DNA of 64,000 nt from an uncultured Nitrospiraceae bacterium. GTDB taxonomy: Bacteria > Nitrospirota > Thermodesulfovibrionia > Thermodesulfovibrionales > SM23-35. The DNA is taken from NCBI GenBank assembly GCA_963727775.1, contig CAVSHB010000004.1:1-64000 (forward strand), read 5' to 3'. The position numbers and the translations under genes were made by a program. Shown here one piece after another: positions 27,213 to 51,906 of this stretch (the stretch's first letter is position 1; every line of letters begins with the position of its first letter). The notes beneath the pieces were generated by a model. That model had not been told where the DNA came from. It worked only from the letters and a program-made list of their open reading frames with translations, and searched no databases.

Positions 27213-28130
27213 ATGAAACTCGGGTACATCGGCTTAGGTAAAATGGGATCCAATATGGTGGAGCGTCTTCTCGAACGGAGATACGAGGTCACTGTTTTTG
27301 ATGCAAACAAAGGTGCTGTAACGGATATTTTAAAACGTGGAGCAAACCCGGCGAGTTCATTGAAATCGTTGATTTCAGAACTTATCCAACCCCGCCTAAT
27401 ATGGCTGATGGTCCCGCATCAGGCTGTAGAAACGGTGCTTCAGGGACTAATCCCTCTGCTTCAGGAAGGTGATACGGTAATAGACGGAGGTAATTCCCCT
27501 TATAAAGATTCAATGAGAAGGGCAGCGGAATTAGAGAAAAAAGGGATTGGTTTTTTAGACGCAGGCGTAAGCGGAGGCCCGGGCGGCGCGAGAAACGGCG
27601 CCTGCATAATGGTCGGCGGCAAGAAAGACATTTTCGATAAATATGAGGACCTCTTCAAAGATCTATCAGCAGAAAAGGGCTATGGATACATGGGCAAATC
27701 CGGTACAGGCCATTTTGTGAAGATGGTACATAACGGAATCGAATATGGAATGATGCAGTCCCTTGCAGAGGGTTTCGCGGTCTTAAGGGCTTCCCCATTC
27801 AATTTAGATTTACTAAATATTGCGGAATTATATAACCACAAAAGTGTCATCGAGTCACGCCTTGTAGGATGGCTCAAAGATGCCTTTGCGCAATATGGAG
27901 AAGACCTGACCGATATCGCGGGTTCCGTGTCGCAAAGCGGGGAAGGACTCTGGACTGTCGAGGCTGCCAAGGAGACCGGGATTCCGGTCCCCGTTATTGA
28001 AGGGGCGCTCAATTTCAGGATCCAGTCACAGGGTAAGCCGAGTTATACCGGCCGGCTCATTTCCGCCCTGCGAAATCAATTCGGAGGGCATGAAGTCTAT
28101 AAAAAAGGACAGGAGAAAAAGAATGGCTGA
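27213..28130 (+). CDS. gnd: 6-phosphogluconate dehydrogenase, short-chain decarboxylating (NAD-type)
   Basis: GLGKMG, IDGGNS, GVSGG, KMVHNGIEYG, ALRNQFGGH. Confidence 0.94.
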   Translation: MKLGYIGLGKMGSNMVERLLERRYEVTVFDANKGAVTDILKRGANPASSLKSLISELIQPRLIWLMVPHQAVETVLQGLIPLLQEGDTVIDGGNSPYKDSMRRAAELEKKGIGFLDAGVSGGPGGARNGACIMVGGKKDIFDKYEDLFKDLSAEKGYGYMGKSGTGHFVKMVHNGIEYGMMQSLAEGFAVLRASPFNLDLLNIAELYNHKSVIESRLVGWLKDAFAQYGEDLTDIAGSVSQSGEGLWTVEAAKETGIPVPVIEGALNFRIQSQGKPSYTGRLISALRNQFGGHEVYKKGQEKKNG

Positions 28131-29964
28131 GACCGGCAAAATTGAAATACTAAAAAAATTGGCAGCGCTGATTCGCTATTTTATTCTTGCTTCGACTACT
28201 GAAGCAGTTTCAGGTCATCCTACGTCCTCATTATCGGCAACTGATTTGATGACAGCTTTGTTATTCGGAGGGTTCTTCCGTTATGATCCTGAAGAGCCTG
28301 ATTATCCGAACAATGACCGTCTGATTTTCTCCAAAGGGCACGCTTCTCCCCTATTCTATTCCTTATGGGCGGCAGCGGGGAAAGTGACTGAGCAGGAGCT
28401 CCTGAGCATGAGAAAATTCGGCAGTCCTCTGGAGGGACATCCTACAGTTGATTTCCCTTATGTTGAAGCTGCCACAGGCTCTCTCGGACAGGGATTGCCG
28501 ATCGGCCTTGGAATGGCATTGAATGCCAAATACCTTGACCGTCTCCCTTATAAGGTATTTGTGCTATTGGGTGACAGTGAGATGGCCGAGGGGTCACAGT
28601 GGGAGGCGATACAACTCGCCGCGCATTATAAACTGGATAACCTCATAGGGATCATAGATGTAAACCGCCTCGGTCAGCGCGGAGAAACTATGTACGGCCA
28701 TGACCTTAACGCATACAAAAAAAGGATCGCTTCTTTCGGGTGGAAAACAGTCGTAATCGACGGCCATAATTTTGATGAAATCTTTTTGGCCTATCACAAA
28801 GCCTTACGGTCAAAGGACCAGCCGGTAATGATAATAGCAAAAACGATTAAGGGGAAAGGTGTTTCATTTATCGAAGACAAAAACGGATGGCACGGCAAAG
28901 CGCTCAGTAAAGAACAGTTTGAACAGGCTTTGCCGGAACTGGGTGAGCTCGACAAATCGCTCCGTGGGGAGATAGCCAGACCTAAAAACCTGAAACCCCA
29001 TAGACCCTCCTGTCAGAAAGCCCGTAACGTCGCCTACACCGCCGGCAACCCGGTCTCTACAAGGAAGGCATACGGAAATGCACTGGAACGGATTTTCCCT
29101 CAATTCCACGATATGGTAGTTCTTGACGCGGAGGTCAGTAACTCAACCTACTCCGAGATATTTCAAAAAGCATACCCTGACCGATTTTTCGAGATGTATA
29201 TAGCAGAACAAAACATGGTAGGCGCGGCCCTTGGTCTTCAGTGCCGGGGCAGGATCCCGTTTGTGTCCACATTCGCCGCGTTTTTTACTAGGGCCTTCGA
29301 TCAGATAAGGATGAGCCAGTATTCAAAAGCCAACATAAAATTCTCGGGCTCCCATGCCGGGGTATCGATCGGTGAAGACGGTCCCTCGCAAATGGGTCTT
29401 GAAGATATCGCGATGTTCAGGGCGATTTTAAACAGTGTTGTTTTGTATCCTTCCGATGCAGTATCTACTGAAAAATTAGTTGAAGCAATGGCAAAACATA
29501 GAGGAATTGTTTACATACGTACAACAAGAAAAGATACCTCTGTCCTTTATGATAATAACGAAGAGTTTCCAATCGGCGGGAGTAAGGTACTAAGAAAATC
29601 CGACGAAGATCGGGCCACCATAATTGCGGCTGGGATAACTTTGCATGAGGCCTTGAGAGCATATGAAGAGCTAAGGGAAGAAGGGATACTTGTCCGTGTA
29701 ATCGATCTTTACAGCATTAAGCCGATCGATAAAGAGACCCTTATTGAAGCAGCGCGTAAAACCAAAACAATTATAACCGTTGAAGACCATTTTGCAGAAG
29801 GCGGCCTTGGAGAAGCGGTCAAAAGCGCGCTTGAGGCTTTTCCGATACCGGTCCATTCTTTGGCAGTCGGAAAAATGCCGAAAAGCGGAAAGCCCGATGA
29901 GCTTCTCGACTATGAAGATATATCGAAAAACGCCATAGTAGGGAAAATAAAGGAGGTCGCATGA
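28123..29964 (+). CDS. tkt: Transketolase
   Basis: SGHPTSS, SKGHA, GSLGQG, GDSE..EG, IAEQN, GEDGPSQ. ATG at 28123 follows AGGAG. Confidence 0.94.
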   Translation: MAETGKIEILKKLAALIRYFILASTTEAVSGHPTSSLSATDLMTALLFGGFFRYDPEEPDYPNNDRLIFSKGHASPLFYSLWAAAGKVTEQELLSMRKFGSPLEGHPTVDFPYVEAATGSLGQGLPIGLGMALNAKYLDRLPYKVFVLLGDSEMAEGSQWEAIQLAAHYKLDNLIGIIDVNRLGQRGETMYGHDLNAYKKRIASFGWKTVVIDGHNFDEIFLAYHKALRSKDQPVMIIAKTIKGKGVSFIEDKNGWHGKALSKEQFEQALPELGELDKSLRGEIARPKNLKPHRPSCQKARNVAYTAGNPVSTRKAYGNALERIFPQFHDMVVLDAEVSNSTYSEIFQKAYPDRFFEMYIAEQNMVGAALGLQCRGRIPFVSTFAAFFTRAFDQIRMSQYSKANIKFSGSHAGVSIGEDGPSQMGLEDIAMFRAILNSVVLYPSDAVSTEKLVEAMAKHRGIVYIRTTRKDTSVLYDNNEEFPIGGSKVLRKSDEDRATIIAAGITLHEALRAYEELREEGILVRVIDLYSIKPIDKETLIEAARKTKTIITVEDHFAEGGLGEAVKSALEAFPIPVHSLAVGKMPKSGKPDELLDYEDISKNAIVGKIKEVA

Positions 29965-30827
29965 GACCCGAAAACCTCAAGACAAAGATATTCCTGGATG
30001 GGGGAGATCCGGTCGAGACCACGGAAATTATAAATCTCCTGGGATTTCTTGACGGCCAGACAACAAACCCGACGCTTATTTCAAAAAATCCCGATGCGCG
30101 TCTCCGCATCGAGCGGGGTGAAAAATTCACTGAAAAAGAAATACTCGACTTTTACCGCAACGTGGTCGGAGAGATTTCCGCTCTCATCCCTCGAGGTTCA
30201 ATATCCGTTGAAGTCTACTCTGATCCGACAACCAAGGCGGAACAAATGTTGAAGCAGGGCAAGGAGATGTTCGCCTGGGTCCCCAATGCACATATTAAAT
30301 TCCCGGCGTCTGCTGACGGATTAAAAGCAGCCGGTTATGCAGTACTCGTCGGCCTTAGGATAAACATGACATTGTGTTTTTCTCAGGAGCAAGCAGCAGC
30401 AGTATATTCGGCTACTCGCGGGGCAAAGAAAGGCGATGTCTTTGTTTCACCCTTTATCGGTCGTCTTGACGACCGGGGAGAAAACGGCATGGACCTCATC
30501 TCCCATATCATGAAAATGTATCAAAAAAGCGACGGCCATGTCATGGTATTGACCGCAAGCGTTAGAAATATAGATCACCTCCTGTATGCAATCAAGCTCG
30601 ATTCGGATATCATTACCGCGCCCTTCCAGACATTAAAAGAATGGGCGGCAAAAGGGCTTCCCGTTCCGGGTAACGATTATGTCTATAACTCAAAAGGTCT
30701 GAGCCCAATTCCGTATAAGGAAATCGACCTTGCAAAAGAATGGCAGGAGTACGATATCCGCCACGAATTGACCGTAAAAGGGATGCAAAAGTTCTCCGAC
30801 GACTGGAACTCTTTAATCAGACGATGA
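29961..30827 (+). CDS. tal: Transaldolase
   Basis: FLDG, TTNPTL, SVEV, IKFP, NMTLCFS, SPFIGRLDD. Confidence 0.88.
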   Translation: MRPENLKTKIFLDGGDPVETTEIINLLGFLDGQTTNPTLISKNPDARLRIERGEKFTEKEILDFYRNVVGEISALIPRGSISVEVYSDPTTKAEQMLKQGKEMFAWVPNAHIKFPASADGLKAAGYAVLVGLRINMTLCFSQEQAAAVYSATRGAKKGDVFVSPFIGRLDDRGENGMDLISHIMKMYQKSDGHVMVLTASVRNIDHLLYAIKLDSDIITAPFQTLKEWAAKGLPVPGNDYVYNSKGLSPIPYKEIDLAKEWQEYDIRHELTVKGMQKFSDDWNSLIRR

Positions 30828-32362
30828 TCGAAAGCAAGTTTTTACAGACATGCGACATCCCCGGCGAAGAACTAAAACTTGAACCCTTTACTATGGTCAT
30901 CTTCGGCGCCGCCGGCGATCTGAGCCAGAGGAAACTCCTTCCGTCTATTTTCCATCTCTTCAGGGAAAAAGAACTTTCCAGAGGGTTCTCCATACTCGGG
31001 TTTGATAAGGCTGTGCTGAGCGAAGAACAGTACCGCAATATGATAAAAGAGGCGCTTCAAAAATTCAGAGAACCGTTTGAAGATCAGGTTGAAGAGCAGG
31101 AATGGAACGAGTTCAGCGAGCATCTGTTTTATCTGTCGGGGACTTTTGAAAACGATGAAAACTTTGCGACGCTTATCAGAAAAATAGGAAAGGTTTCCGT
31201 CCCAACATCAAAAGAAACCAGAGACGTTATCTATTATATGGCGGTCCCTCCCCAGGTAACCCAGCTCATTATCGAAAAACTTGAACGTCACAATCTCTGC
31301 AAAGGTATATTCAGCACGAAGCTCATTATCGAAAAACCGTTCGGCAGAGACCGCTCATCAGCGGTAAGGCTGAATAATATCCTCAATGCTTCTTTTAATG
31401 AAAACCAGGTATTCCGTATTGACCACTATCTTAGCAAGGAACCTGTCCAGAATATTATTTTCTTCCGTTTTTCAAACACGATATTTGAGCAGCTCTGGAA
31501 CCGCCGGTATATAGATAACGTACAGATAACAGTGGCAGAGGAATTGGGAATCGAACACAGGGGTGAATTCTATGAAAAAGAAGGCGTTGTCAGAGATATC
31601 GTGCAAAACCATATTATGCAGCTCATGGGTTTGGTTGCAATGGAACCTCCCGTCGGGTTTAAGCCGGAATTTATCAGGGATGAAAAGTTAAAGATATTGC
31701 GCTCTATCAGACCAATAGACGCAGAGCATGTCGATAAATTTATTGTAAGGGGCCAGTACGGGAACGGAAAGATAGGTGGAACTGATGTGCCGGGATACAG
31801 GGAAGAGCCGAATGTTTCTCCCTCTTCGATAACGCCTACTTTCTTTGCCGCCAAATTATACATCGACAACTGGCGTTGGGCAGGAGTGCCTTTCTATGTG
31901 CGCACCGGAAAGCGGATGACGAAAAGAATAACCGAAATCTGTATCCAGCTCAAACAGGTGCCGCTCAGACTTTTTGGCCGGGCATGTGATATACCTGAAC
32001 CGAATATACTCAATCTCACGGTCCAGCCGGACGAGCAGATATCAGTGCGTTTTGGAGTAAAGTACCCATATTCCCAGAATCAGCTTTACTCTGTGAATAT
32101 GGTATTCAACTATCGGGAAACCTTCCGGATGAAACCTCATTTCCCTTATGAACGGCTCTTAATCGACTGTATGAAAGGAGATCTTACACTATTTGTCAGA
32201 CAGGACGCTGTTGAGGCCATGTGGGAAGTTGTTGATCCGATTATAGCCCGATGGGAAAGCACCGCTCCTTCCGGTTTCCCTAATTACGCGGCAGGCACAT
32301 GGGGCCCGAAAGATTCCTTTACCTTGCTTGATCAAGACAGACGCCGCTGGATAACAAGTTGA
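30824..32362 (+). CDS. zwf: Glucose-6-phosphate 1-dehydrogenase
   Basis: GAAGDL, EKPFG, RIDHYLSKE, RDIVQNH, RTGKR, YERL. ATG overlaps the tal stop. Confidence 0.95.
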   Translation: MIESKFLQTCDIPGEELKLEPFTMVIFGAAGDLSQRKLLPSIFHLFREKELSRGFSILGFDKAVLSEEQYRNMIKEALQKFREPFEDQVEEQEWNEFSEHLFYLSGTFENDENFATLIRKIGKVSVPTSKETRDVIYYMAVPPQVTQLIIEKLERHNLCKGIFSTKLIIEKPFGRDRSSAVRLNNILNASFNENQVFRIDHYLSKEPVQNIIFFRFSNTIFEQLWNRRYIDNVQITVAEELGIEHRGEFYEKEGVVRDIVQNHIMQLMGLVAMEPPVGFKPEFIRDEKLKILRSIRPIDAEHVDKFIVRGQYGNGKIGGTDVPGYREEPNVSPSSITPTFFAAKLYIDNWRWAGVPFYVRTGKRMTKRITEICIQLKQVPLRLFGRACDIPEPNILNLTVQPDEQISVRFGVKYPYSQNQLYSVNMVFNYRETFRMKPHFPYERLLIDCMKGDLTLFVRQDAVEAMWEVVDPIIARWESTAPSGFPNYAAGTWGPKDSFTLLDQDRRRWITS

Positions 32363-32367
32363 GGGCA

Positions 32368-33102
32368 ATGGAAGATCGCCGCAAAATCCTTGTATTCGAT
32401 AATGCGGGTGAAATGACGGATTTTATGGCGGAACAGTGGACAAAGCTCTCTATGCAAGCCGTTCGTGAGAAAGGTTCCTTTGTCGTCGCCCTTTCAGGAG
32501 GGGATACGCCGAGAGACTTTTATCGAAAGCTTTCCGGCATTACTGAACAATCGCTATGGGACAGGATACATGTTTTTCTTGCGGACGAACGTTTTGTGCC
32601 CTTTGCCGATCCTGACAGTAACTACGGAATGCTGACCGGTCTCCTTCTGGATAAGGTGAATATGCCGCTGGAAAACCGTCATCCCGTGCCTGTGGATGCA
32701 TTGTCGCCGGATATCTCCGCAAACAAATACGAAAAGGACATGATCATGTTTTTCGGCCTGCGGAATTCCCTTCTGCCTGTATTTGACCTTATCGTGCTCG
32801 GGATAGGGGAAGACGGCCATACAGCCTCGCTTTTCCCGGGTACCGACGTATTAAAAGAAAGGAGACATCTTGCATGCGCCGTATATATGGACTCAATACA
32901 ACATAACAGGATAACTCTTACACTGCCTGTGATTAATAACGCAAAAAATATCATCTTTCTTGCATCCGGCAGAAAAAAAGCGGATGTGATAAGAAAAGTC
33001 CTAAAGGAAAAGCTTGTCTCACTGCCGGCTTCGATGGTTATGCCTGTGCAGGGAAACGTCTTATTTGTACTGGACAATGAGGCAGGTTCATTAAATGTAT
33101 AA
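32368..33102 (+). CDS. pgl: 6-phosphogluconolactonase
   Basis: ALSGGDTP, DERFVP..D.DSNY, LGIGEDGHTASLFP, RITLTLP. Confidence 0.94.
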   Translation: MEDRRKILVFDNAGEMTDFMAEQWTKLSMQAVREKGSFVVALSGGDTPRDFYRKLSGITEQSLWDRIHVFLADERFVPFADPDSNYGMLTGLLLDKVNMPLENRHPVPVDALSPDISANKYEKDMIMFFGLRNSLLPVFDLIVLGIGEDGHTASLFPGTDVLKERRHLACAVYMDSIQHNRITLTLPVINNAKNIIFLASGRKKADVIRKVLKEKLVSLPASMVMPVQGNVLFVLDNEAGSLNV

Positions 33103-33490
33103 CGTTACTCTGTGGCCCGCAGTTGTTTATTTCCTTGCCGTTATTCTCATTGTGGCCGGAATAATGGTCCTATCCTATGTCCTCGGACAGCGACATAAAG
33201 ACAGGGCCACCGGCGAGCCATATGAATCGGGGATTGTTTCAACGGGGTCCGCGCAGGTCCGTTTCGATGTCAGGTTCTATATGGTGGCGATGTTTTTTGT
33301 TATCTTCGATCTCGAATCGGTATTTGTCTATGCATGGGCGGTCTCGGTCCGCGAGCTCGGCTGGCCCGGTTATTATGCTATCCTCATTTTTATCGGTATA
33401 CTTATCATGACTCTGTTTTACTTACTGAGGATCGGCGCGCTGGACTGGGGCCCGTCGAGAATAAAACCTCAAACGACAAAACGGGAGTAA
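33095..33490 (+). CDS. nuoA: NADH-quinone oxidoreductase subunit A
   Basis: [24 protein letters not shown]. Confidence 0.95.
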
Positions 33491-33501
33491 CACTTTTAAT
33501 T

Positions 33502-34140
33502 ATGAAACCGGACGAGGAAAAAACATCAAACACAGTGCTGGCTGATCATGCCTACGGATCCGTTGAAAACGCCGTCGGCAGGTCCCTGATTTTCGCGCGT
33601 CTTCAAGAGCTTCTTGCCTGGGGCAGGAAAAATTCGCTCTGGCCGTTCAACTTCGGCCTTTCATGCTGTTTTGTCGAGATGGCAACCAGCATAACCAGCA
33701 GATATGACATCGCGCGTTTCGGCTCTGAAGTAATTAGGGGCACACCCCGTGAGGCTGATGTAATGGTAATTGCAGGAACTGTTTTCATAAAGATGGCCCC
33801 TGTTATAGAGCGCCTTTATCAACAGATGATGCTTCCACGGTGGGTAATCTCGATGGGTTCGTGCGCAAATTCGGGAGGGATGTACGACATTTACAGCGTA
33901 GTTCAGGGTGTAGACAAGTTTCTCCCTGTTGATGTCTATATTCCCGGGTGTCCTCCCAGACCCGAAGCATTTATGGAGGGGCTGCTGCTGCTCAGTCAAT
34001 CCGTCGGCAAAGAAAGAAGGCCTTTGAGCTGGGTCATGGGTCCGCAAGGTATTGAGACGCCTCGCAGACCATCGATGCGGGACATGAAAAGTGCGGAGAG
34101 AATAAAGGCCACAGAACTCCGTTCACCTGATGAGGTTTAA
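33502..34140 (+). CDS. nuoB: NADH-quinone oxidoreductase subunit B
   Basis: [34 protein letters not shown]. Confidence 0.95.
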
Positions 34141-34159
34141 ATGAATACAAGGAAATGTA

Positions 34160-35920
34160 ATGTCATTTATGCTTAATACCGACCCGAACATATCGGAAGA
34201 ATTGCAGCACAAATTTGCCGGACATATCCTTTCAGAACAGGAAACGCGCGATAACATTCTTACTCTGTGGGTAAAAGAAGAAGGCATACGCGACATTTTG
34301 AGGTATCTTAAAAATGAGGCGACAAAACCTTATCGAATGCTCTACGATATCACGGCGATTGATGAGCGTGTCCGTTCAAACAGGCAGAACCAGCCTGAGA
34401 GCGATTTCACGCTTATCTATCAACTCTTATCTTATGACCGGAATGAATACATCCGCCTTAAAGCTCCCCTCAAAGGCGATTCCCCGTCCTTATCAACGAT
34501 TACAGATATTTGGCCTTCAGCCAACTGGTACGAGAGAGAGGTATGGGACATGTTCGGGATCACTTTTGAAGGACACCCTCATCTCACAAGAATTCTTCTG
34601 CCCCCGACGTGGCAAGGACATCCTCTAAGGAAAGAGCACCCTGCGCGCGCCACTGACATGGGGCCTTTTACCCTTCCTGAAAAAAAAGAGGAAGAAGAGC
34701 AGGAAGCTCTCAGGTTCCGTCCTGAAGACTGGGGAATGCGTTCCGGCGACGAAGACACAGACTTTCTCTTCCTTAATCTCGGGCCGCAGCATCCCGGTAC
34801 ACACGGACTCCTGCGCGTAATTCTCGAATTAGACGGCGAGGAAATAAAGGGCGCTGTACTTGATATAGGGTTCCATCACAGGGGAGCGGAAAAGATGGGG
34901 GAGCGGCAGTCCTGGCATACGTACATCCCTTATACTGACCGGGTTGATTATCTCGGCGGCGTAATGAATAACCTCGCGTATGTGCTCGCTGTTGAACAGC
35001 TCGCCGGGATAGAGGTGCCTGAAAAAGCAAAGGTCATTCGTGTCATGCTCTGCGAACTCTTTCGCATTGCGAGCCATTTGGTCTGGTATGGCACGTTCGC
35101 TCAGGACCTAGGCGCGTTATCGCCTGTGTTCTATATGTTCAGCGACAGAGAACGCATTTTCGATATTATCGAGGCCATATGTGGTGGCCGAATGCACCCG
35201 AGTTGGTTCCGTATCGGCGGGGTAGCGCAAGACCTGCCTAAAGGCTGGGACGGGCCTATCCGAAATTTTCTCGCGTATCTCCCCGGACGGCTTGCAGAGT
35301 ATGACAAGATGGTCATGCAGAACAGCATCTTTAAGGCGCGTACCCGGGGCATAGGCAGTTATACGCTGGATGAAGCCATAGAGTGGAGTATTACCGGACC
35401 GGGTCTGCGCGCGTGCGGCTTTGATTGGGATTTCCGAAAAAGAATGCCTTACTCGGGATATGATCAGTTTGAGTTTGATATTCCGACTGCCGTACACGGC
35501 GATTGTTACGATAGGGCCATTGTCCGCGTGGAAGAGATGCGCCAAAGCCTGCGGATCATTGAACAGTGCCTGAAAAACATGCCCGCTGGGCCGTACAAGG
35601 CAGTGCATCCGTCGGCAACACCTCCTCTTAAAGAACGGACCATGTATGACATCGAGACTTTGATCACGCATTTTCTCAACGTGAGCTGGGGACCCGTCAT
35701 TCCTTCAGGGGAGGCATTTTTCAACATTGAGGCCACGAAAGGCGGCAATGGTTATTACCTGATCAGCGACGGCGGCACAACGTCTTACAGGACACGCATT
35801 CGCACACCTTCCTTTCCTCATCTTCAGATGGTACCTATGGTATGCTGTAGCCGGACTGTAGCTGATTTATTGGCCATCCTGGGGAGCGTGGACTATGTGC
35901 TTGCCGATGTAGACAGATGA
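34160..35920 (+). CDS. nuoC: NADH-quinone oxidoreductase fused subunit C/D
   Basis: [39 protein letters not shown]. Confidence 0.95.
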
Positions 35921-35963
35921 CTGAACACAACCCCTATATTTTTTTGATTAAAGGAGAGCATTA

Positions 35964-36428
35964 ATGCTGTCTGAAGCAGAGAGACGGGAAATTGATTCTG
36001 TCCGCAAAGGATACAAGTATAAACAGGCCGCATGTGTCGAGGCATTGAAAATTATACAACGCAGCCGTGGCTGGATATCAGATGAGGACATAAAAGATAT
36101 TTCAGAATTATTGGACATGACCTCTGCAGAACTCGATAGTGTTTCAACGTTTTACAGCCTTATCTTCAGAAGACCTGTCGGCAGGCATATCATCCTGATC
36201 TGCGACAGCGTAAGCTGCTGGATTACCGGATATGAAAGGATTATTGAGCATATTAAAACCAGACTGGGAATCGAGCTTGGTGGAACAACCTCGGACGGCA
36301 GGTTTACTTTGTTGCCCGTCGCATGCATCGGCGCATGCGAACAGGCCCCTGCAATGATTATCGATAACATTGTTTATGGAGATCTCGACGAGGACAAAAT
36401 CTATGAGATCCTTTCGAGATATGAATAA
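35964..36428 (+). CDS. nuoE: NADH-quinone oxidoreductase subunit E
   Basis: CDSVSC...CIGAC 2Fe-2S ligands. Confidence 0.95.
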   Translation: MLSEAERREIDSVRKGYKYKQAACVEALKIIQRSRGWISDEDIKDISELLDMTSAELDSVSTFYSLIFRRPVGRHIILICDSVSCWITGYERIIEHIKTRLGIELGGTTSDGRFTLLPVACIGACEQAPAMIIDNIVYGDLDEDKIYEILSRYE

Positions 36429-36440
36429 GGGATATCTTTA

Positions 36441-37718: not shown

Positions 37719-37722
37719 ACTT

Positions 37723-41425: not shown

Positions 41426-41441
41426 AAAGAAAATTAATGAT

Positions 41442-41584: not shown

Positions 41585-41628
41585 TCTTTATTATAATCAT
41601 AATTACCTCTCGGGGCTAAGGTGATTCA

Positions 41629-42144: not shown

Positions 42145-42153
42145 AGAGGAATT

Positions 42154-42672: not shown

Positions 42673-42977
42673 TGTCGATTCCTGAACACTATGGTATCAT
42701 CCTGTCCGGAATCCTTTTTGTGCTCGGGTTGACCGGTGTTCTCGTGCGCAGAAATATCATATTTATCCTGCTTTCCGTCGAGATCATGCTGAACGCCTCG
42801 GGGCTCGCGTTTATCGTTGCGGGGGCGCGATGGGGAGATGCGGACGGACAGATCATGTTCATCTTTATCCTGGCTACAGCGGCAGCTGAAGTGTCTGTGG
42901 GTCTGGCGCTCGTTCTTCAGATCTATCATCAAATCAAGACGCTCGATGCGGATTCCGCAAATAAAATGAGGGGATAA
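42669..42977 (+). CDS. nuoK: NADH-quinone oxidoreductase subunit K
   Basis: RRN...SVEIMLN, DGQ, AAAEVSVGLAL. Confidence 0.95.
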   Translation: MMSIPEHYGIILSGILFVLGLTGVLVRRNIIFILLSVEIMLNASGLAFIVAGARWGDADGQIMFIFILATAAAEVSVGLALVLQIYHQIKTLDADSANKMRG

Positions 42978-44848
42978 TGCTTCAACTATTATGGCTGATA
43001 CCTGCCCTGCCTTTTGCCGCTTTCCTTATGCTGGCGCTGTCCGGACGCAGGTTTTCTGAAAAAGTTGCGGCGTTCATCGGGGTAATCTTCGTGGGTATTT
43101 CCGCGATATTGGCGCTCCTGGCAGGAGCAAGTTTCATTTTTGCTACCCCGCCGGGCAATGCATATACACAGACTCTCTGGAACTGGGTACAAGTCGATGG
43201 GTTTGCCCCCATGGTATCACTGCGTCTTGATGCGCTGTCACTGGTAATGATTGTAGTAGTAACATTTGTCGGTTTTCTTATCCATCTTTATTCGATCGAA
43301 TTTATGAAGGGCGATGAAGGGTATAGCCGTTTCTTTGCTTATATGAATCTGTTCGTCGGCTCCATGCTCACACTGGTCTTGGCCGATGACCTGCTTCTTC
43401 TTTACCTCGGATGGGAAGGGGTGGGACTATGCAGCTATCTCCTCATTGGCTTTTGGTATCGTGACCCGGCAAACGGCCGCGCAGCCCTTAAAGCGTTCAT
43501 TGTTACCCGAATTGGTGACGCTTCACTGGCCATAGGTCTGTTCCTGCTTTTTACTAACCTCGGAACATTGCAGATACAGCAGCTGATGCACATCGCCCCA
43601 CAGAAATTGCCTGTCGGATCAGGGCTTGCCGTGGCGTCTGCCGCACTGCTGCTCGGAGGGGCCGTAGGCAAATCCGCGCAGCTCCCTCTCCAGACATGGC
43701 TTCCGGATGCAATGGCAGGCCCTACTCCCGTGAGCGCCCTTATCCATGCCGCAACAATGGTGACCGCCGGTGTTTACCTTCTTGCCCGCACGCACGTGCT
43801 TTTTGCGCTTGCGCCTGTTGTCCAGACTGCAACGGCCATAATCGGAGCGGCGACCTTGCTCCTTGCAGGCTTCAGCGCCCTCACACAGCGCGACATCAAG
43901 CGCGCCCTCGCCTATTCGACTATGAGCCAGATTGGATACATGTTCCTTGCACTCGGTGTCGGAGCATGGTCTGCAGCTATTTTCCATTTCGTGACCCACG
44001 CTTTTTTTAAGGCCCTCCTTTTCCTCGGCGCAGGTGTTGTTATCCTTGCGTTGGACCAGGAACATGATATGCTGAAGATGGGAGGACTCAGAAAACAGTT
44101 GCCTGTCACGTTCTGGACCTTTCTTATCGGTTCGGCATCTTTGTCGGCGTTGCCTATAATTACAGCCGGATTTTACAGCAAGGACCTGATCCTTTGGAAT
44201 GTCTGGGCTTCAAGTTCAGGGAATGTCTGGTTTTATATAGCAGGATTGTCAGGCGCATTCATTACTTCGATTTACACCTTCCGCATGCTGTTTTTGACCT
44301 TCTCCGGAGACGCTGCGACCCAGGTGAGTCGTAAACCCGGTGTATTAATGACCCTGCCCTTAATTATTCTGGCTGCGCTATCGTTGACAGCAGGTTTTAT
44401 TGACCTACCCGGATTCCTTCACACTGTTCTGCCTCCAGTGACCATAGCCACAAAGGACTTGAGCGCCGAAGGAAATTTGCGGTTCGTTGCCTCTCTGATT
44501 GTTCTCATAGGAATTATATTTGCGTACAGATATTTTCTCCATAGCCCCCAACACACGGGCCGCAGAGAGAAGATTATCCGTAATCCGATCGTCTATGCTA
44601 TACACTGCTTCTTATTTCAGGGCTGGAACTTTGATCTGATGTATGACAAAGTGTTTGTGCAGCCTTTTTTATGGACTGCGCGTATCAACAGAAATGATTT
44701 CATAGATGGCATATCACTCGGGATAGCGCTGCTTTGCCGTGCAGGTAATCGCGCCCTCAGTTTCACTCAGTCCGGGAAAATTCGGTGGTACGCAATGGGT
44801 ATCGCTGTCGGCGCAGTCATTATCATAGGTATCGTGGAGATTTTATGA
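42977..44848 (+). CDS. nuoL: NADH-quinone oxidoreductase subunit L
   Basis: GWEGVGLCSYLLIGFW, KSAQLPLQTWLPDAMAGPTPVSALIHAATMV. Confidence 0.96.
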   Translation: MLQLLWLIPALPFAAFLMLALSGRRFSEKVAAFIGVIFVGISAILALLAGASFIFATPPGNAYTQTLWNWVQVDGFAPMVSLRLDALSLVMIVVVTFVGFLIHLYSIEFMKGDEGYSRFFAYMNLFVGSMLTLVLADDLLLLYLGWEGVGLCSYLLIGFWYRDPANGRAALKAFIVTRIGDASLAIGLFLLFTNLGTLQIQQLMHIAPQKLPVGSGLAVASAALLLGGAVGKSAQLPLQTWLPDAMAGPTPVSALIHAATMVTAGVYLLARTHVLFALAPVVQTATAIIGAATLLLAGFSALTQRDIKRALAYSTMSQIGYMFLALGVGAWSAAIFHFVTHAFFKALLFLGAGVVILALDQEHDMLKMGGLRKQLPVTFWTFLIGSASLSALPIITAGFYSKDLILWNVWASSSGNVWFYIAGLSGAFITSIYTFRMLFLTFSGDAATQVSRKPGVLMTLPLIILAALSLTAGFIDLPGFLHTVLPPVTIATKDLSAEGNLRFVASLIVLIGIIFAYRYFLHSPQHTGRREKIIRNPIVYAIHCFLFQGWNFDLMYDKVFVQPFLWTARINRNDFIDGISLGIALLCRAGNRALSFTQSGKIRWYAMGIAVGAVIIIGIVEIL

Positions 44849-46428
44849 TATTACTATATCTTATTCTTATCCCTCTGACAGGTGGCCTGTTGTCGTGGGT
44901 CCTTGGCCGCCGAAATCCCAGGCTACCATTCCGGATTTCATTGATCGCCATGACGTCGGACCTTTTCATCACACTTTTTTTGTGGTTTGCATATTATCAA
45001 AACATAGCTCTTGAAAGTCGCGGGAGATGGCTGATCGAATTGAACTGTAAATGGATTCCCCAATTGGGAATCGGTTTTCACCTGGCCATGGACAGCCTCA
45101 GTCTTGTCCTTGTCACGCTCACGGCTTTCCTCGGCATTATGGCCGTTGCGTCTTCACCGACAGAGATAAAAGAAAAGATCGGGTTCTTTCATTTCAACCT
45201 GATGTTCGTGTTAGCAGGAATTATCGGGGTTTTCCTTGCTATGGATCTGTTCCTCTTCTATTTTTTCTGGGAACTCATGCTGGTGCCTATGTATTTCCTC
45301 ATTGCTGCTTGGGGCCATGAAAACCGAATTTATGCGTCCATCAAGTTTTTCCTCTTTACACAGCTCAGCGGACTGCTTATGTTTGCTGCTATTCTCGGAC
45401 TATATTTTGTCCACGGAAACAATACCGGCATATATACATTCGATTATATGCAGTTGCTCGGGACGTCCATGCCTGCATCCACGGCGATGTGGCTTATGCT
45501 CGGTTTCTTCATTGCCTTTGCAGTTAAACTTCCCGTTGTTCCTGTGCATAACTGGCTGCCTGATGCCCATACAGAAGCGCCGACTGCCGGGAGTGTGATC
45601 CTCGCCGGGCTTTTGCTTAAAACCGGGGCTTACGGATTACTCCGCTTTGTAATCCCGTTGTTCCCCGAAGCAGCAGCTGCTTTCAGTCCTGTAGCCATGA
45701 CGCTTGCCGTCATCGGGATCCTTTACGGCGCCTTTATGGCTTTTGCGCAGACAGACCTCAAGCGTCTTATCGCATATACAAGCGTAAGCCACATGGGGTT
45801 TGTGCTCCTCGGAATATTTGCATGGAACATGCTTTCATTGCAGGGCGCGGTCCTGCAGATGGTATGTCACGGCATAAGCACCGGAGCGCTTTTTATTATC
45901 GCAGGAGCTTTGCAGGAGAGAATACATACCAGGGATATAAACCGCATGGGCGGACTCTGGTCAACCGCGCCGCGCATGGGCGCGACCGGACTTTGCCTTG
46001 CACTTGCATCTTTAGGGCTGCCCGGAATGGGCAATTTCATTGCCGAGTTTCTCGTGCTTTTAGGGTCCTATAGGATAAATATCGCTCTGACAGTATTTGC
46101 AACGACCGGACTTGTTATCGCAACAATATATGCATTGTGGATGATACAGGCGACCTTCTTCGGAGTAAATAAGGAAGGATGGAAGGTCCCTGATTTCTCA
46201 GTACGGGAAACGGCTGTTATGTTTGTAATGATTATGACCCTGCTCTGGCTCGGCATTTATCCGCAACCTTTATTAAACACAACAGGACAATCCCTTGGCG
46301 TCATGCAAAAAACCGTCGAAGAAATGCGCTCTGAAAAATCACCCGCTCAAGCCGGACAATCCTTGAAGGGAGACATTAATAATAACGTTGCCGCTTTTTT
46401 GTCAAAGGTGACCGATGACAATAAATGA
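44845..46428 (+). CDS. nuoM: NADH-quinone oxidoreductase subunit M
   Basis: FFWELMLVPMY, WLPDAHTEAPTAGS, KRLIAYTSVSHMG. ATG at 44845 overlaps the nuoL stop. Confidence 0.95.
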   Translation: MILLYLILIPLTGGLLSWVLGRRNPRLPFRISLIAMTSDLFITLFLWFAYYQNIALESRGRWLIELNCKWIPQLGIGFHLAMDSLSLVLVTLTAFLGIMAVASSPTEIKEKIGFFHFNLMFVLAGIIGVFLAMDLFLFYFFWELMLVPMYFLIAAWGHENRIYASIKFFLFTQLSGLLMFAAILGLYFVHGNNTGIYTFDYMQLLGTSMPASTAMWLMLGFFIAFAVKLPVVPVHNWLPDAHTEAPTAGSVILAGLLLKTGAYGLLRFVIPLFPEAAAAFSPVAMTLAVIGILYGAFMAFAQTDLKRLIAYTSVSHMGFVLLGIFAWNMLSLQGAVLQMVCHGISTGALFIIAGALQERIHTRDINRMGGLWSTAPRMGATGLCLALASLGLPGMGNFIAEFLVLLGSYRINIALTVFATTGLVIATIYALWMIQATFFGVNKEGWKVPDFSVRETAVMFVMIMTLLWLGIYPQPLLNTTGQSLGVMQKTVEEMRSEKSPAQAGQSLKGDINNNVAAFLSKVTDDNK

Positions 46429-47851
46429 TATATTTGTTCTGTTGCCTTTAATTGTGATAGCCGCAACCGCATTGGTCGTCATGCTTGCAATCGCTTTCCA
46501 CCGCAGTCATATACTCAGCGCCATACTGACATCCACCGGAATTGCAGGATCTTTAGCATCACTCGCAAAGTCCTCCACATTATTGCCGCGCCGGGTAACT
46601 TTGCTTTTTGTCTTTGACCATTATGCAATCTTCTTCTCAGGGCTGATACTCATCGCAAGTTTATTTGTAACTGTTTTGTCATATGCTTATCTTAAAATGC
46701 AAGAGAGAAACCGTGAGGAATTCTACATCCTCCTTCTCCTGTCAATACTTGGCGCGATGGTCCTTATTTCCGGCAGCCACTTCGCTTCCTTCTTCCTGGG
46801 GATTGAAACCCTGAGCGTAAGCCTCTATGCCCTTATTGCCTATCTTTGCGCCTGCGAACGCAGCATAGAGGCCGGGATTAAATATCTCATCCTCGCTTCA
46901 GTTTCTGCGGCATTCCTGCTATTCGGCATGGCTCTCATTTATGCGGAATTGGGGACAATGGATTTCGCCCGGATTGCGGCTGGAATTTCCCTTGCGGGAG
47001 TTCATAATATATTTTTTCTCACGGGTACCGCAATGATAATCACAGGAGTGGGATTTAAACTGGCACTGGCGCCTTTTCATATGTGGACCCCTGATGTATA
47101 TGAAGGCGCTCCCGCGCCTGTCACCGCTTTTATAGCGACAGTATCAAAGGGTGCCGTGTTTGCCCTTTTGCTGAGATATTTTACCCTGATGGATATCCAC
47201 CTCTATGATTCGTTGTTCCTGATATTCGCGCTCATGGCGGCTGCTTCAATGTTCATAGGAAACCTGCTCGCTCTGACGCAGAACAATGTCAAGCGTATCC
47301 TTGCTTATTCGTCGATCTCGCATATGGGCTACTTGCTTGTGGCTTTCCTTGCGGTCAAAACATATGCTGTGACAGCCGTGGCCTTCTACCTTACCGCCTA
47401 TTTTATAACTACCCTGGGGGCTTTCGGCGTCGTCTCCGTATTATACGAGGGACACAGGGAAGCGGATGATATCGATGATTATATCGGTATGGCATGGAGA
47501 AGGCCGTTATTGGGCGGCGTTTTTACCTTAATGCTGCTCTCGCTGGCAGGCATTCCACTGACTGCGGGTTTCATGGGGAAATTTTATATTATGGCAGCGG
47601 GGGTCGGCTCGTCTCTATGGCTGCTCGTGATAACCCTCGTGATAAACAGCGCCATCGGACTATTCTATTACCTGAGGATTATTGTTGCCTTATACAAAAG
47701 GAGTGACGAGAAAGATGCTGCTGTTTCAGGTATTTCCTGGTCAAGCGGTATTGCGCTCGCGGCACTTTCGATATTACTTATATGGCTGGGCGTATATCCG
47801 GCCTTTTTTATTGATATGATCCGCATAATTATCAGCGGCAATATTACATAG
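46415..47851 (+). CDS. nuoN: NADH-quinone oxidoreductase subunit N
   Basis: [40 protein letters not shown]. Confidence 0.95.
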
Positions 47852-47873: not shown

Positions 47874-48410
47874 ATGGAAGGAAATATCCAAGCCGGCATG
47901 TCTGATAAGCCCGGCGCTACACGTCGCGCTTTTCTCAAGATGCTTATCATGGTGATAACTTTTTTTACCTCACTGATATTGGGAATACCTTTCGTTAGGT
48001 CCCTTATTGTATCAAAGTCCAGCGAAGCCAAACAGGTTTGGCACAGGGTGGCTGAAATTAATTCACTGCCTGAAGGCCGGCCGATAAAGTTGAACTTTTT
48101 TGCTCGCGTCGAAGACGCCTACAGGCATGAAGCCGCGATGCATTCAGTCTGGGCTGTAAAACACTCAGAGTCGGATATAACGGTATACTCTCCGATATGC
48201 ACACATCTCGGCTGTTATTACAAATGGAATGCCGGGACCGGACACTTCGAATGTCCATGCCATGGAAGTATATTTTCAGTAGATGGGAAAGTACTTGGCG
48301 GCCCTGCGCCGCGTCCCCTTGATACACTGCTTTCAAGAATAGATAATGGGGCTTTGTTCGTTGCATGGGAGCAGTTCAAGGTCGGAATACCTGAAAAGGT
48401 GCGGGTATAG
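47874..48410 (+). CDS. Rieske iron-sulfur subunit of a Rieske/cytochrome b complex
   Basis: Tat motif TRRAFLK, CTHLGC, CPCHGS, GPAPRPL. Confidence 0.93.
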
Positions 48411-48418
48411 GGGGTCTT

Positions 48419-50359
48419 ATGCTTACACGAATCCGGATTTGGTTGAATGAAAGATGGCCGTTCTCTGAACTCGTCCATCTCGCGCTCGACGAAGAGATCC
48501 CAGGCGGCAGCCGCCTCACATATACCCTTGGCAGCGCCCTTATCACTGTTTTCCTGCTTCAGGCAATAACAGGGATTCTTCAGCTTTTCTATTACGTTCC
48601 CGCTGTAGACCATGCCTATGACAGTATCAGTTTTTTGAGGACCCAAATCCCTTTTGGCTGGATGATCAACGGTCTGCATTATTGGGGGGCCAATGCCATG
48701 ATCATTATAATAGCGCTCCATATCTCGCGCGTCTTTGTATGGGGCGCATACCAAAGGCCACGTGAGCTGACATGGCTGTTCGGCGTAAGCCTTTTGCTTA
48801 TCGTTATGGCCTTAAGCTTCACAGGAGGGCCTCTGTCCTGGGACCAAAGAGCCTATTGGGAAGCAGAGGTCGGTACAAGTATTCCAGGTTCTATTCCCGT
48901 TGTGGGCGACGCTATCAAACGAATAATGCGCGGTGGGGACGAGATGGGCCAGTTGACCCTATCGCGCCTTTTTATCGTCCACACAGCGGTTCTGCCTGCG
49001 ACCCTGGTTGCATTAATCGCAGCCCATCTCATTGCCTTGCGCCGTTTCGGCAATGTCGGACCATGGGACGAGACCCAAAGGAAATTTAACGGACCGTTCT
49101 GGCCTGATCAGGTCTTCAAAGATGCGCTCATTTCAGCGCTCATAATTCTTTCACTCATCACATTGGTTGTATTCGCTCCGAAACCCTTTAACGGCGCAGC
49201 AGATCCTTTGGATTCCTTATTCATTCCAAAGCCCGAATGGAACTTCCTCTTCCTTTATGAGGCACTCAAATTCTTTCCGGGAAAGCTCGAACCTTTAGGC
49301 GCGGTGGTCTTCCCCCAGGCGCTGGTTTTTTTATTGATACTGCTCCCTTTTCTTGACCGAGGGCCTGAACGCAACCCTCTGAAGCGTCCCTTGATTTTGG
49401 CGTGCGGAATAATATTCTGGTTAATTATAGTGTCGTTGACCATTGCCGGTTATTACAGTAAACCGGCAATGGGAGAAGCCCCTGCGCCTCCTTCACTGGT
49501 GCCCCGGACAATCGCTTCTTCAGCGGCATCTCAGAGCGGAGCTCAGTTGTTTCAATTGCAGGGCTGCGTTGCATGCCATCGTGTAAATAACGCTGGCGGA
49601 ACAGTCGGCCCCGAGTTGTCAGGAGAAGGGCTCAAGGGCAGGACAAAAGAGTGGCTCATCACTCAAATCAGAAATCCAAAGGAACATAATCCTAATACCA
49701 TCATGCCGTTCTTTGCCGCTCTGAGCAATAAGGATGTAGATACTCTTGTTGCTTATCTGCTCGGCCTTAAAGGCGCGCCGGGCAAGCCTTCGCCTCAAAC
49801 GCCGGATATTACCGGCAAGCCGTCGACTTCCGAACAATCATCGTCGCAACCTGCTACGGATGTCTTTCCTCAAACGAACCCGACTGCATCGCCCTCTCAG
49901 GGACAACCGGGGCCTGCAGCCGACATTATCGGCAGCGCTGAAAGGGGGGCCATGCTATTTGGGATGGAGTGTGCGGCATGTCATGGTCCTGCCGGAACGG
50001 ATAAAGTTCCCAATCCTGGCTCGGCTGAGGCATACGTTCCTGCGCTCAATCCGATTGATAAGGAATTATTCAGCAAAGACCCTAAGGAATTCGCGGGAAA
50101 TATCGACAAGTTTATTCAGCACGGCTCGATACCGGAAGGGACCGGACCGCAGCGCCGGATGCCGGCATTCGGAGACACCAATTCTCTCACCCAGCAGCAG
50201 ATATCAAACGTCGAGGCCTATATCCTGGCTTTAAACAATATTGATCGCGCAGAGATAGTTAATCCCGGAATGCCGCCGAAACGGTTTTTCTTTATAGTAG
50301 TGCCGGCAATTATTTTAATTTTATTTATCCTGGGCGGCATATATAAATGCCTTCCATAA
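48419..50359 (+). CDS. Cytochrome b (b6 + subunit IV-like) fused to two c-type cytochrome domains
   Basis: Four heme-b His (LHYWGA..LHISR; VHTAV..AHLI), PEWN, two CxxCH motifs (CVACH, CAACH) separated by a Pro/Ser/Thr linker. Confidence 0.92.
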   Translation: MLTRIRIWLNERWPFSELVHLALDEEIPGGSRLTYTLGSALITVFLLQAITGILQLFYYVPAVDHAYDSISFLRTQIPFGWMINGLHYWGANAMIIIIALHISRVFVWGAYQRPRELTWLFGVSLLLIVMALSFTGGPLSWDQRAYWEAEVGTSIPGSIPVVGDAIKRIMRGGDEMGQLTLSRLFIVHTAVLPATLVALIAAHLIALRRFGNVGPWDETQRKFNGPFWPDQVFKDALISALIILSLITLVVFAPKPFNGAADPLDSLFIPKPEWNFLFLYEALKFFPGKLEPLGAVVFPQALVFLLILLPFLDRGPERNPLKRPLILACGIIFWLIIVSLTIAGYYSKPAMGEAPAPPSLVPRTIASSAASQSGAQLFQLQGCVACHRVNNAGGTVGPELSGEGLKGRTKEWLITQIRNPKEHNPNTIMPFFAALSNKDVDTLVAYLLGLKGAPGKPSPQTPDITGKPSTSEQSSSQPATDVFPQTNPTASPSQGQPGPAADIIGSAERGAMLFGMECAACHGPAGTDKVPNPGSAEAYVPALNPIDKELFSKDPKEFAGNIDKFIQHGSIPEGTGPQRRMPAFGDTNSLTQQQISNVEAYILALNNIDRAEIVNPGMPPKRFFFIVVPAIILILFILGGIYKCLP

Positions 50360-50374
50360 TCCTAAAACAAATAA

Positions 50375-50520: not shown

Positions 50521-50544
50521 TGTGCTGATTGATAAGGAGGTCTT

Positions 50545-51906
50545 ATGAAAGATTATGATGTCATAGTAATCGGGGCCGGTGTGGGGATGATCGTTGTATT
50601 TAAGGCATTATCAGGCGGGAAAAAGGTCGCGCTGATCGATAAGGGAAATCCAGGCGGCACATGCCTTAATGTAGGATGCGTCCCTTCCAAGATGCTTATA
50701 TATCCTGCCGATAGAATAGCCGAGATAAAGGAATCCGGGAAGCTCGGGATACACGCGAAGATAACCGGCATCGATTTCAGTTCCATTATGGGGCGAATGA
50801 GAAAGACCGTCCGGCTTGGCCGGAAATATCTGACAAAAGCGATAAGAGAGACGGCAAATCTTGATTTTTATAACAAGGAATTTCATTTTGTCGATGGGCA
50901 TACATTGAAGACAAAGAACGAAACCATCAGGGGAAAGCAAATTTTCATCGCGTCAGGTTCCCGTCCCTTAATCCCTCCAATTAAAGGGCTGGACACTATT
51001 GACTATTTAACTAATGAGAGTGTTCTGGAGCTTAAAAAGAAACCGGACAGCATCATCGTTATAGGCGGAGGGTATATAGCGGTTGAATATGCCCATTTCT
51101 TCGCGGCTATTGGGACCAGGGTAACAATACTGGAGATCGGAGAGAGATTACTGTCAGCTGAAGAACCGGAAATATCGGACCTCTTAAAAAAAGAACTGTC
51201 GAAGCGCATGGATATCCGTACCCGCACTGCGGCAGTGGAAGTCAGGAAAAACAGATATGGATGCAGTGTTCTTGCAGTGGACATATCCACCAAAAAAGAA
51301 ACGGTGATAAGTGCTGAAAGAATAATGGTTGCAACAGGAAGAAAGTCCAATGCCGATTCATTAAAGGCTGAAAAAGCAGGCATCGAAACGAACCATTTTC
51401 ATTACATAAAAGTAAACGACCGGCTCGAAACAAACAAAAAACATATTTGGGCCTTCGGCGATGCCGTCGGGAAACAGATGTTCACTCACGCCGGCGACAA
51501 AGAAGCCGAGATCGCGTGGCATAACGCTACTCATAATAAAAAAATAAAAATGGATTTTTCTGCTGTTCCGTACGCGGTTTTCACACATCCCCAGATTGCA
51601 GCAGTCGGTTTGACGGAAGCAGAGGCAAGAATAAATCATGATATTTTAGTGGGGAAAGCAAAGTACTCGGACATTGTGGCCGGTGATACAATGGCCGAAA
51701 CAGACGGGTTTGCAAAAGCGATTGTCGAAAAAAAGACTGATAAAGTCCTCGGGTTCCACATTATAGGACCATATGCCACACATATCATTCAGGAAATCGC
51801 CAATGCCGTTGCAATCGGGAACACGGCCCGGCAGATCACAAACAGCATGCACGTTTTTCCCTCGCTGTCGGAGCTTATAACAGAAGCCCTGAATAACCTC
51901 GGATAG
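50545..51906 (+). CDS. Flavoprotein disulfide reductase (dihydrolipoyl dehydrogenase/mycothione reductase-like family)
   Basis: GAG, GGTCLNVGCVPSK, GGGYIAVE, ATGR, AFGDA. C-terminal HVFPSLSE. Confidence 0.88.
   Translation: MKDYDVIVIGAGVGMIVVFKALSGGKKVALIDKGNPGGTCLNVGCVPSKMLIYPADRIAEIKESGKLGIHAKITGIDFSSIMGRMRKTVRLGRKYLTKAIRETANLDFYNKEFHFVDGHTLKTKNETIRGKQIFIASGSRPLIPPIKGLDTIDYLTNESVLELKKKPDSIIVIGGGYIAVEYAHFFAAIGTRVTILEIGERLLSAEEPEISDLLKKELSKRMDIRTRTAAVEVRKNRYGCSVLAVDISTKKETVISAERIMVATGRKSNADSLKAEKAGIETNHFHYIKVNDRLETNKKHIWAFGDAVGKQMFTHAGDKEAEIAWHNATHNKKIKMDFSAVPYAVFTHPQIAAVGLTEAEARINHDILVGKAKYSDIVAGDTMAETDGFAKAIVEKKTDKVLGFHIIGPYATHIIQEIANAVAIGNTARQITNSMHVFPSLSELITEALNNLG

Follow-up and report, generated by a model that had tools for sequence, protein, structure and literature searches.

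Why should an anaerobe carry genes for the oxidation of sugar phosphates and for a respiratory chain in one run? The question is raised by a stretch of 64,000 nucleotides (nt) from an uncultured Nitrospiraceae bacterium (contig CAVSHB010000004.1; hereafter the window, whose positions are used unless a contig is named), in which 21 genes on the (+) strand lie in a single direction at 27213..51906. The block runs gnd-tkt-tal-zwf-pgl-nuoA-B-CD-E, through nuoN, to genes for a Rieske protein, a cytochrome b with two cytochrome c domains and a flavin disulfide reductase. The host, a sulfate-reducing member of Thermodesulfovibrionales (Nitrospirota; genome G000, 3.43 Mb, 96.8% complete), encodes MqnC, and its dsrA and carbon monoxide dehydrogenase/acetyl-CoA synthase (CODH/ACS) genes support the anaerobic lifestyle that an earlier note, made from this DNA alone, had assumed; CODH/ACS makes the host a likely autotroph. 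Judged from sequence, we hold it fairly probable that the block encodes an oxidative-stress-induced chain carrying electrons from glycogen through NADH, menaquinone and cytochrome c to O2.

Gene order, conservation and predicted promoter

Family matches (Pfam, NCBIfam) checked for each gene and the coordinates (Table 1) bear out both the 21 co-directional genes and the tight junctions listed in the earlier note. Overlaps of 8 nt join gnd to tkt and pgl to nuoA, and overlaps of 4 nt join tkt to tal and tal to zwf. The zwf and pgl genes are 5 nt apart with an ATG start or overlap by 4 nt with a TTG start; 22 nt separate nuoN from the Rieske gene, and 8 nt the Rieske gene from that of cytochrome b. 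Two wider spacers, on which the note was silent, lie between nuoH and nuoI (203 nt) and ahead of the reductase (185 nt). G023, a genome of the same family but a different genus, repeats the 21-gene order in full with rpe and rpiB in front, so the arrangement is more than chance and the conservation elsewhere that the note had proposed to seek by synteny exists (L021 is the same stretch as the G023 locus and was counted once). The block is a real and conserved module, probably co-transcribed. The nuoH-nuoI spacer (41426-41628) is also long in G023 (230 nt) and in G213; of two overlapping pieces of it, one folds at z -2.7, and conservation in G023 is not evident by eye.

The functional link claimed between pentose phosphate genes, complex I and Rieske/cytochrome b is supported by linkage that recurs in altered gene orders. 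Fused NuoCD of this kind is patchy, occurring in 4 of 40 relatives, 7 of 55 family genomes and 28 of a 200-genome sample of the order. Comparison of these 28 carriers with the 172 non-carriers uses clade thresholds chosen after the search, at gaps in ranked lists, and overstates the association because kin are not independent, which tells against our proposal: the cytochrome b clade of the window is found in 22/28 versus 1/172, any zwf in 27/28 versus 46/172, this zwf clade in 20 versus 6, CoxA in 19/28 versus 33/172 and this reductase in 18 versus 11. The Rieske-cytochrome b pair adjoins nuo in 16 of the 28 (5' of nuoA, sometimes with gnd between, or 3' of nuoN), pentose phosphate genes share the fetched stretch in 13 of the 28, and G199 and G173 have them roughly 4 kb away from the oxidase operon. 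Among 80 metagenome cytochrome b loci, 29 are at least 7 kb long; pentose phosphate genes occur in 12 of these 29, oxidase genes in 11, nuo genes in 7 and at least one of the three kinds in 19. Two loci, L189 and L209, run in one direction as nuoMN-tal-gnd-zwf-cytochrome c-Rieske-cytochrome b-sco-coxA-C-D-B-cyoE-rpiA. Their oxidase operon is 75-78% identical to the unlinked one of this genome (CoxA 77%), and their cytochrome c is 52% identical to the one closing that operon; the 90% clusters that contain their CoxA and Zwf have mostly Syntrophales among the named members.

A predicted sigma54 box, the single one in the window, stands at the head of the block. Since 25 of 100 shuffles of the window match it, the box alone is not significant and counts only with its position and its enhancer sites. 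Alignment places a palindromic half-site about 66 and about 87 nt 5' of the box, and an IHF-like site lies between the half-sites and the box. The half-site accompanies 13 of the 31 strict sigma54 boxes of the genome at one of the two offsets and 9 at both; among 20,000 A+T-rich control positions the corresponding figures are 410 and 5. In 56 family genomes an exact pattern has 24 hits, spread over 13 of them, whereas its reversed control has no hit. Matching boxes lie 5' of rpe and sco in G023 and of nuoA in G222.

The 13 promoters of this genome, two of which had served to derive the half-site motif, head genes for defence against reactive oxygen species (ROS) or repair (5), this block (1), regulators (4, including a second RpoD-like sigma factor), a channel (1) and genes without assignment (2). 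The ROS group comprises thiol peroxidase, Fe/Mn superoxide dismutase (SOD) with DJ-1 and a thioredoxin-like protein, superoxide reductase, and MsrB-MsrA twice. In relatives the same architecture precedes sco-coxA (G023, G017) and genes for SOD, thiol peroxidase, ferritin-like and glycogen-synthase-like proteins. Oxidant exposure, suggested in the earlier note, is thus supported as the likely trigger by the promoter shared with ROS genes; the regulon could instead respond to stress in general or to starvation, and not to O2 specifically. Candidate activators are 11 GAFTGA-type proteins in the genome. No Rex, Fnr or Crp box was found in 26 upstream regions. The sigma54/enhancer promoter was not found 5' of nuoA in G213, G214 and G216, nor at the cluster heads of families f2, f5, f6 and f7 and of L189/L209, some of these loci stopping short of the head. 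Among 35 scanned proteins downstream of these promoters, 16 have no Pfam family. Regulon members lie at C1:118127, C3:512750, C3:560677, C1:659337, C2:776301, C3:407387 and elsewhere, and several first genes are uncharacterised (DUF2934; proteins of 84-225 residues without family).

Could the pentose phosphate and nuo genes be separate transcription units joined by chance in one lineage? Among 80 nuoA loci from many phyla, pgl lies immediately 5' of nuoA in only two, which agrees with the earlier view that such coupling is unusual; the upstream flank, often short, holds a window-type pentose phosphate gene in 11 and a long transaldolase in 4 more. In G213 and G222, nuo-Rieske-cytochrome b has no pentose phosphate genes ahead of it, and two gaps of about 200 nt interrupt the block. 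Against this stand the 8-nt pgl/nuoA overlap, which holds neither a sigma70-like site nor a stable fold (one weak hairpin of 5 pairs falls within nuoA), the sigma54 site confined to the head, and the linkage in other orders. Sigma70-like sites in the window are at chance level (24 versus 21.9; 23 versus 17.4), and terminator-like sites (29 versus 15.4; 16 versus 15.5) are absent from every intergenic gap of the block. We consider separate units highly improbable.

The block shows no sign of recent capture as a unit, which the earlier note had raised as possible. A FastTree phylogeny of the single protein NuoCD (101 rows, excluding broken or partial rows and those below 55% identity, with no approximately unbiased test) groups it with E. 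coli NuoCD, apart from the split NuoD types (support 100). One clade (95) unites the three family members with a single metagenome row; separate groups comprise families f2 and f5 and part of f6, and E. coli sits in the same large clade on a long branch. Gnd groups with stand-alone copies of the family and Zwf with an order-wide clade enriched in carriers. The best NuoA matches among genome contigs are from Thermodesulfovibrionales, Thermodesulfovibrionia and other Nitrospirota. Recent transfer from Proteobacteria was rejected, as the G+C content of the block is 45-52% against 45% for the genome and the NuoCD tree follows families. Old inheritance with many losses and reshuffling appears to fit better than recent capture of a 25-kb block, because the NuoCD, Gnd and Zwf trees follow family or order groups.

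Cofactor fingerprints and respiratory complexes

NADH as the electron carrier, as the earlier note had it, is supported as likely by the family score of Gnd and by fingerprints in Gnd and Zwf. Gnd lies above the cut-off of the NAD+-dependent family TIGR00872 and has Asp in the β2-α2 loop instead of Asn-Arg, a motif whose meaning is taken from passages of PMC8900737. Relative to E. coli, Zwf has Ala for Lys18 and Asp61-Lys62 for Gly-Arg50 and so lacks the marks of NADP+-specific glucose-6-phosphate dehydrogenases. In E. coli, Lys18 and Arg50 bind the 2'-phosphate and the double mutant no longer discriminates (PMC4807051), and NAD+-preferring enzymes without the Arg have been described (PMC8546961). 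From these residues Zwf and Gnd are likely to produce NADH. In the fetched loci, departure from the plain Arg type is seen in 19 of 25 zwf genes linked to respiratory genes and in 6 of 21 without such linkage, and gnd has Asp in 24 of 29 linked and 6 of 14 unlinked copies. Syntrophales-like loci carry a long-chain gnd and a separate zwf clade, unrelated to those of the window, that still have Asp-type fingerprints. Gnd of L189, L209, L193, L184, L197 and L202 scores as NADP-dependent by hidden Markov model, yet has an Asp-Lys/Arg-Asp fingerprint.

The same genes might instead be co-regulated without being metabolically coupled. The pentose phosphate enzymes would then supply NADPH to antioxidant enzymes (thiol peroxidase, Msr, flavin reductase), complex I and Rieske/cytochrome b would oxidise NADH from elsewhere, and a shared stress promoter would explain their adjacency. 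The regulon is indeed rich in repair systems, for which NADPH is the cofactor. Among linked genes, 6 of 25 zwf and 4 of 29 gnd have NADP-type residues, the Asp type appears in unlinked gnd as noted, and Zwf Lys62 could still accept NADP+; these points weigh directly against our proposal. Furthermore, G193 and G175 carry NADP-type forms of both enzymes, all 29 carriers of the reductase have zwf and only 18 have this complex I, and gnd-tkt-(tal)-zwf-pgl occurs without this complex I in G003, G009 and G164. The fingerprints of Gnd and Zwf in the window, the Glu at the cofactor loop of the reductase and the recurrence of the Asp type in the unrelated Syntrophales-like enzymes speak the other way, and we regard this uncoupled arrangement as unlikely.

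Complex I of the block has the features of clade E, the E. coli type, in agreement with the proteobacterial style recognised earlier: fused NuoCD (586 residues; NF008728 1003.8 bits, cut-off 840), long NuoG (917 residues) with the N7 motif at 228, and short NuoE (154 residues). Its subunits are 43-75% identical to their E. coli counterparts. NuoF retains the Glu equal to E. coli E183, a residue with a role in selecting NADH, and on this ground an NADPH-using complex I was rejected. Spero 2015 gives fused NuoCD, NuoG of about 900 residues (mean 894), the N7 motif and short NuoE for clade E, which is patchily distributed and often a second isozyme beside a native one (PMC4453560). Contig C2 of this genome carries such a native nuo cluster, with 11 subunits and no nuoEFG; its NuoD (L114:7751-9235; 494 residues) has an insertion of about 60 residues common to many family genomes. 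The present case differs in the overlap coupling to pentose phosphate genes and the Rieske/cytochrome b genes that follow; PMC4453560 links clade E to anaerobic respiration and does not contain the word pentose.

The cytochrome b has four heme b His (87, 101, 188, 203), no CxGG and the Qo motif PEWN, with CxxCH at 383 and 518 in its c domains. PEWN is found in 20 of 22 aligned cytochromes b, the 2Fe-2S boxes are conserved in 20 Rieske rows, and the Rieske and cytochrome b genes are adjacent. An AlphaFold model of cytochrome b without alignment had a mean pLDDT of 41.9 and was not used. By its sequence the protein resembles, without matching, the PEWY-cyt c clade, a group of mixed phyla including Nitrospira, in being a long cytochrome b with C-terminal class I cytochrome c and no heme ci motif; it differs in having PEWN rather than PEWY or PDWY, and two c domains. 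The string PEWN was not found in the literature text searched.

Among solved structures the reductase is nearest to mycothione reductases and keeps the redox-active CxxxxC. The catalytic His is replaced by Phe438, and Phe stands there in 16 of 17 aligned homologues including that of the window. The protein lies under every NCBIfam cut-off and adjoins the module also in G178 and G193; its other neighbourhoods hold mostly unrelated genes. It probably has an accessory part in the same response, as a thiol-disulfide reductase.

Electron acceptor and proposed mechanism

The earlier note had the chain end at periplasmic c-hemes. A more likely end is an unlinked caa3-type oxidase, encoded on contig C1 in an operon sco-coxA-C-B-cyoE-cytochrome c, with CoxA above the TIGR02891 cut-off and a c-heme motif in CoxB. 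Genes for narG and cytochrome bd were looked for in the genome and not found. Across 32 genomes carrying this complex I or cytochrome b, a heme-copper family gene is present in 26, cytochrome bd in 21 and narG in 4. Because of these counts, and of the narG-H genes in f5 clusters, the acceptor is likely, on gene content, O2 here and in most carriers and nitrate in some.

Alternatively the chain would end on nitrogen oxides, through NorCB (acting on nitric oxide), through multiheme proteins that reduce nitrite or, where a relative encodes it, through NarGHI. The genome encodes a NorCB-like pair, an NrfA-like protein and several octaheme proteins, clade E is enriched with anaerobic respiration in gammaproteobacteria (Spero 2015, PMC4453560), and narG-H lies inside the cluster in three f5 genomes. 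The scarcity of narG and its absence here argue otherwise, as do the oxidase operon rather than nor as a recurrent neighbour (11 of the 29 long metagenome loci) and the SOD and peroxidase of the regulon; we judge this outcome quite unlikely. Octaheme (HAO-like) and pentaheme cytochrome genes lie at C1:1555155-1561710 and C1:101663-103129, with one frame interrupted.

Least probable of all, Rieske/cytochrome b and complex I would run in reverse, reducing NAD+ for carbon fixation with electrons taken uphill from an inorganic donor of high potential. The likely autotrophy of the host would suit such a flow, and complex I runs in reverse in some bacteria (PMC4453560). The regulon is of a stress type. 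Uphill NADH would also be redundant beside Zwf, Pgl and Gnd, which already produce NADH or NADPH in an irreversible direction.

Further observations weigh against a stress-induced chain to O2: (i) no heme-copper oxidase gene was found in 6 of the 32 genomes; (ii) G015 (97% complete) has Rieske-cytochrome b-nuo, and neither oxidase type nor narG was found there; (iii) narG-H stands directly ahead of the Rieske gene in G051, G093 and G083 (family f5); (iv) the distal enhancer site of the window is weak and fails a two-mismatch test; (v) no sigma54/enhancer promoter was found within 4.8 kb 5' of sco-coxA in this genome; (vi) cytochrome c oxidase is reported, in passages of PMC6964889 and PMC11451228, not to rise with O2 in Geobacter and Desulfovibrio.

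With these reservations, we propose that the block is one sigma54-controlled operon, induced with antioxidant genes on exposure to O2 to respire stored sugar. GlgP and Pgm, whose genes lie elsewhere, would mobilise glycogen to glucose-6-phosphate, and the oxidation of this sugar phosphate by Zwf, Pgl and Gnd is predicted to use NAD+ in preference to NADP+. The resulting pentoses would be recycled by Tkt and Tal together with Rpe, RpiB and Pgi, whose genes are unlinked; alternatively, phosphoketolase may divert them to acetate. Clade E complex I, which has an NADH-input module unlike the native 11-subunit complex, would pump protons as it passes electrons from NADH to menaquinone. Electrons drawn from menaquinol by Rieske/cytochrome b-c-c would travel through its own c hemes to a small cytochrome c, and the caa3-type oxidase would reduce O2. 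The predicted outcome is removal of O2 and a proton-motive force while the O2-sensitive enzymes of sulfate reduction and the Wood-Ljungdahl pathway idle. The module may serve growth or only survival.

The block holds neither a full pentose phosphate cycle nor a self-contained module, both claimed before: rpe, rpi and pgi are absent, copies of rpe, rpiB and pgi lying on contigs C3, C4 and C2, and the glycogen enzymes and terminal oxidase lie elsewhere. The zwf, pgl and gnd genes are single copy in the genome, which also has glycogen synthase, four phosphorylases and Pgi. What the block misses is supplied by an operon on contig C3 (237455-253816, - strand; L253/L254) with rpiB, pgi and rpe: Usp-pgm-glgP-x-ackA-phosphoketolase-rpiB-class I aldolase-pgi-rpe-P-type ATPase-phosphatase. 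It is a likely fermentative, glycogen-to-acetate counterpart. At the G015 locus (L015/L016), Usp-Rieske-cytochrome b-nuo is followed by glycogen synthase-like, GH57 branching, amylase and alpha-glucan water dikinase-like genes.

Known systems and neighbouring genes

Desulfovibrio gigas is reported to take up O2 as an acceptor (Fareleira 1997). Its chain is a cytoplasmic one built on rubredoxin:oxygen oxidoreductase, whereas here three proton-pumping complexes are predicted. Likewise a sulfate reducer that uses a glucose polymer reserve, it does so with Embden-Meyerhof enzymes (PMC4287179), in place of the NAD-type pentose phosphate route predicted here. Acetic acid bacteria share a short-chain Asp-type Gnd, a Zwf without the Arg and NADH feeding respiration (PMC8900737, PMC8546961); they are obligate aerobes for which the route is the main catabolism, unlike the predicted stress module of an anaerobe with route and chain in one operon. 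The RpoS regulon of Geobacter sulfurreducens also combines O2 reductases with antioxidant genes (PMC6964889), under a different sigma factor. NmpR (PMC11841059) and OrpR (PMC8359166) act with sigma54 at tandem enhancer sites in O2 or redox responses, and their motifs (GCGCA-N5-TGCGC; a 17-bp palindrome) differ from those of the block. The passages of PMC13657043 and PMC12342949 do not contain the word pentose. No description of the cluster or regulon was found in the open-access literature (titles and the starts of abstracts); within that literature, the parts are known and the assembly and regulon are not found in print.

The wider question is how sulfate reducers and syntrophs survive or use O2 in soils, peat and sediments with shifting water tables. 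Known answers revolve around cytochrome bd, rubredoxin oxidoreductase and ROS enzymes; the locus suggests another, in which glycogen is oxidised by an NAD-type pentose phosphate route into a proton-pumping chain under a regulon-defining promoter motif. That motif and the PEWN cytochrome b could serve as markers of O2-respiring members in lineages scored as obligate anaerobes. More tentatively, it is possible that two lineages regarded as textbook strict anaerobes, the sulfate reducers of Thermodesulfovibrionales and the syntrophs of Syntrophales, possess a complete aerobic chain (clade E complex I, PEWN cytochrome b-c and caa3 oxidase) that is inducible, conserves energy and is fed by an NAD-linked pentose phosphate cycle, for which each lineage recruited different dehydrogenases. 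Control in this family would lie with a so far undescribed sigma54 activator that also governs glycogen synthesis and ROS defence, and the organisms would be facultative aerobes living on internal reserves.

Table 1 Predicted promoter elements and genes of the block
Feature	Position	Strand	Basis
Two imperfect palindromes, 21 nt apart, predicted enhancer-binding-protein sites	26996-27006 (weak), 27017-27027 (strong)	+	Alignment, positional enrichment
IHF-like site between enhancer sites and promoter	27065..27077	+	In 17/24 family promoters vs 10% of control stretches
Predicted sigma54 -24/-12 promoter, GG-N10-GC, 114 nt 5' of gnd	27083..27098	+	Conserved in relative; rpoN in genome
gnd, short-chain 6-phosphogluconate dehydrogenase	27213..28130	+	TIGR00872 363.6 bits, cut-off 297.2; Asp30 fingerprint (NAD type)
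tkt, transketolase	28123..29964	+	NF004559 921 bits, cut-off 488
tal, transaldolase-family protein	29961..30827	+	PF00923; under TIGR00875 cut-off
zwf, glucose-6-phosphate dehydrogenase	30824..32362	+	TIGR00871; alignment to E. coli
pgl, 6-phosphogluconolactonase	32368..33102	+	TIGR01198
nuoA-B-CD-E-F-G-H-I-J-K-L-M-N, clade E complex I	33095..47851	+	Pfam/NCBIfam, identity to E. coli, N7 motif, tree
Rieske protein, twin-arginine-like anchor	47874..48410	+	PF00355; motifs; one hydrophobic segment
Long cytochrome b fused to two class I cytochrome c domains	48419..50359	+	Domain and motif matches
Flavin disulfide reductase, mycothione reductase/lipoamide dehydrogenase fold	50545..51906	+	Fold match; redox Cys pair kept

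Insertion-sequence-like integrase-core genes lie directly 3' of the reductase (52100-55620), with a truncated tyrosine recombinase look-alike, seen by eye, on the - strand at about 52100-52400. Ahead of the block are an IS110 and two Mutator-family transposases (12212-17591) and a reverse transcriptase fragment (61-717). Further downstream, at 55622-57796, stand genes for a CCG/VTT-domain protein and a YdjY-domain protein; the former matches the C-terminal part of a selenoprotein-neighbour oxidoreductase family and is possibly truncated by an insertion sequence.

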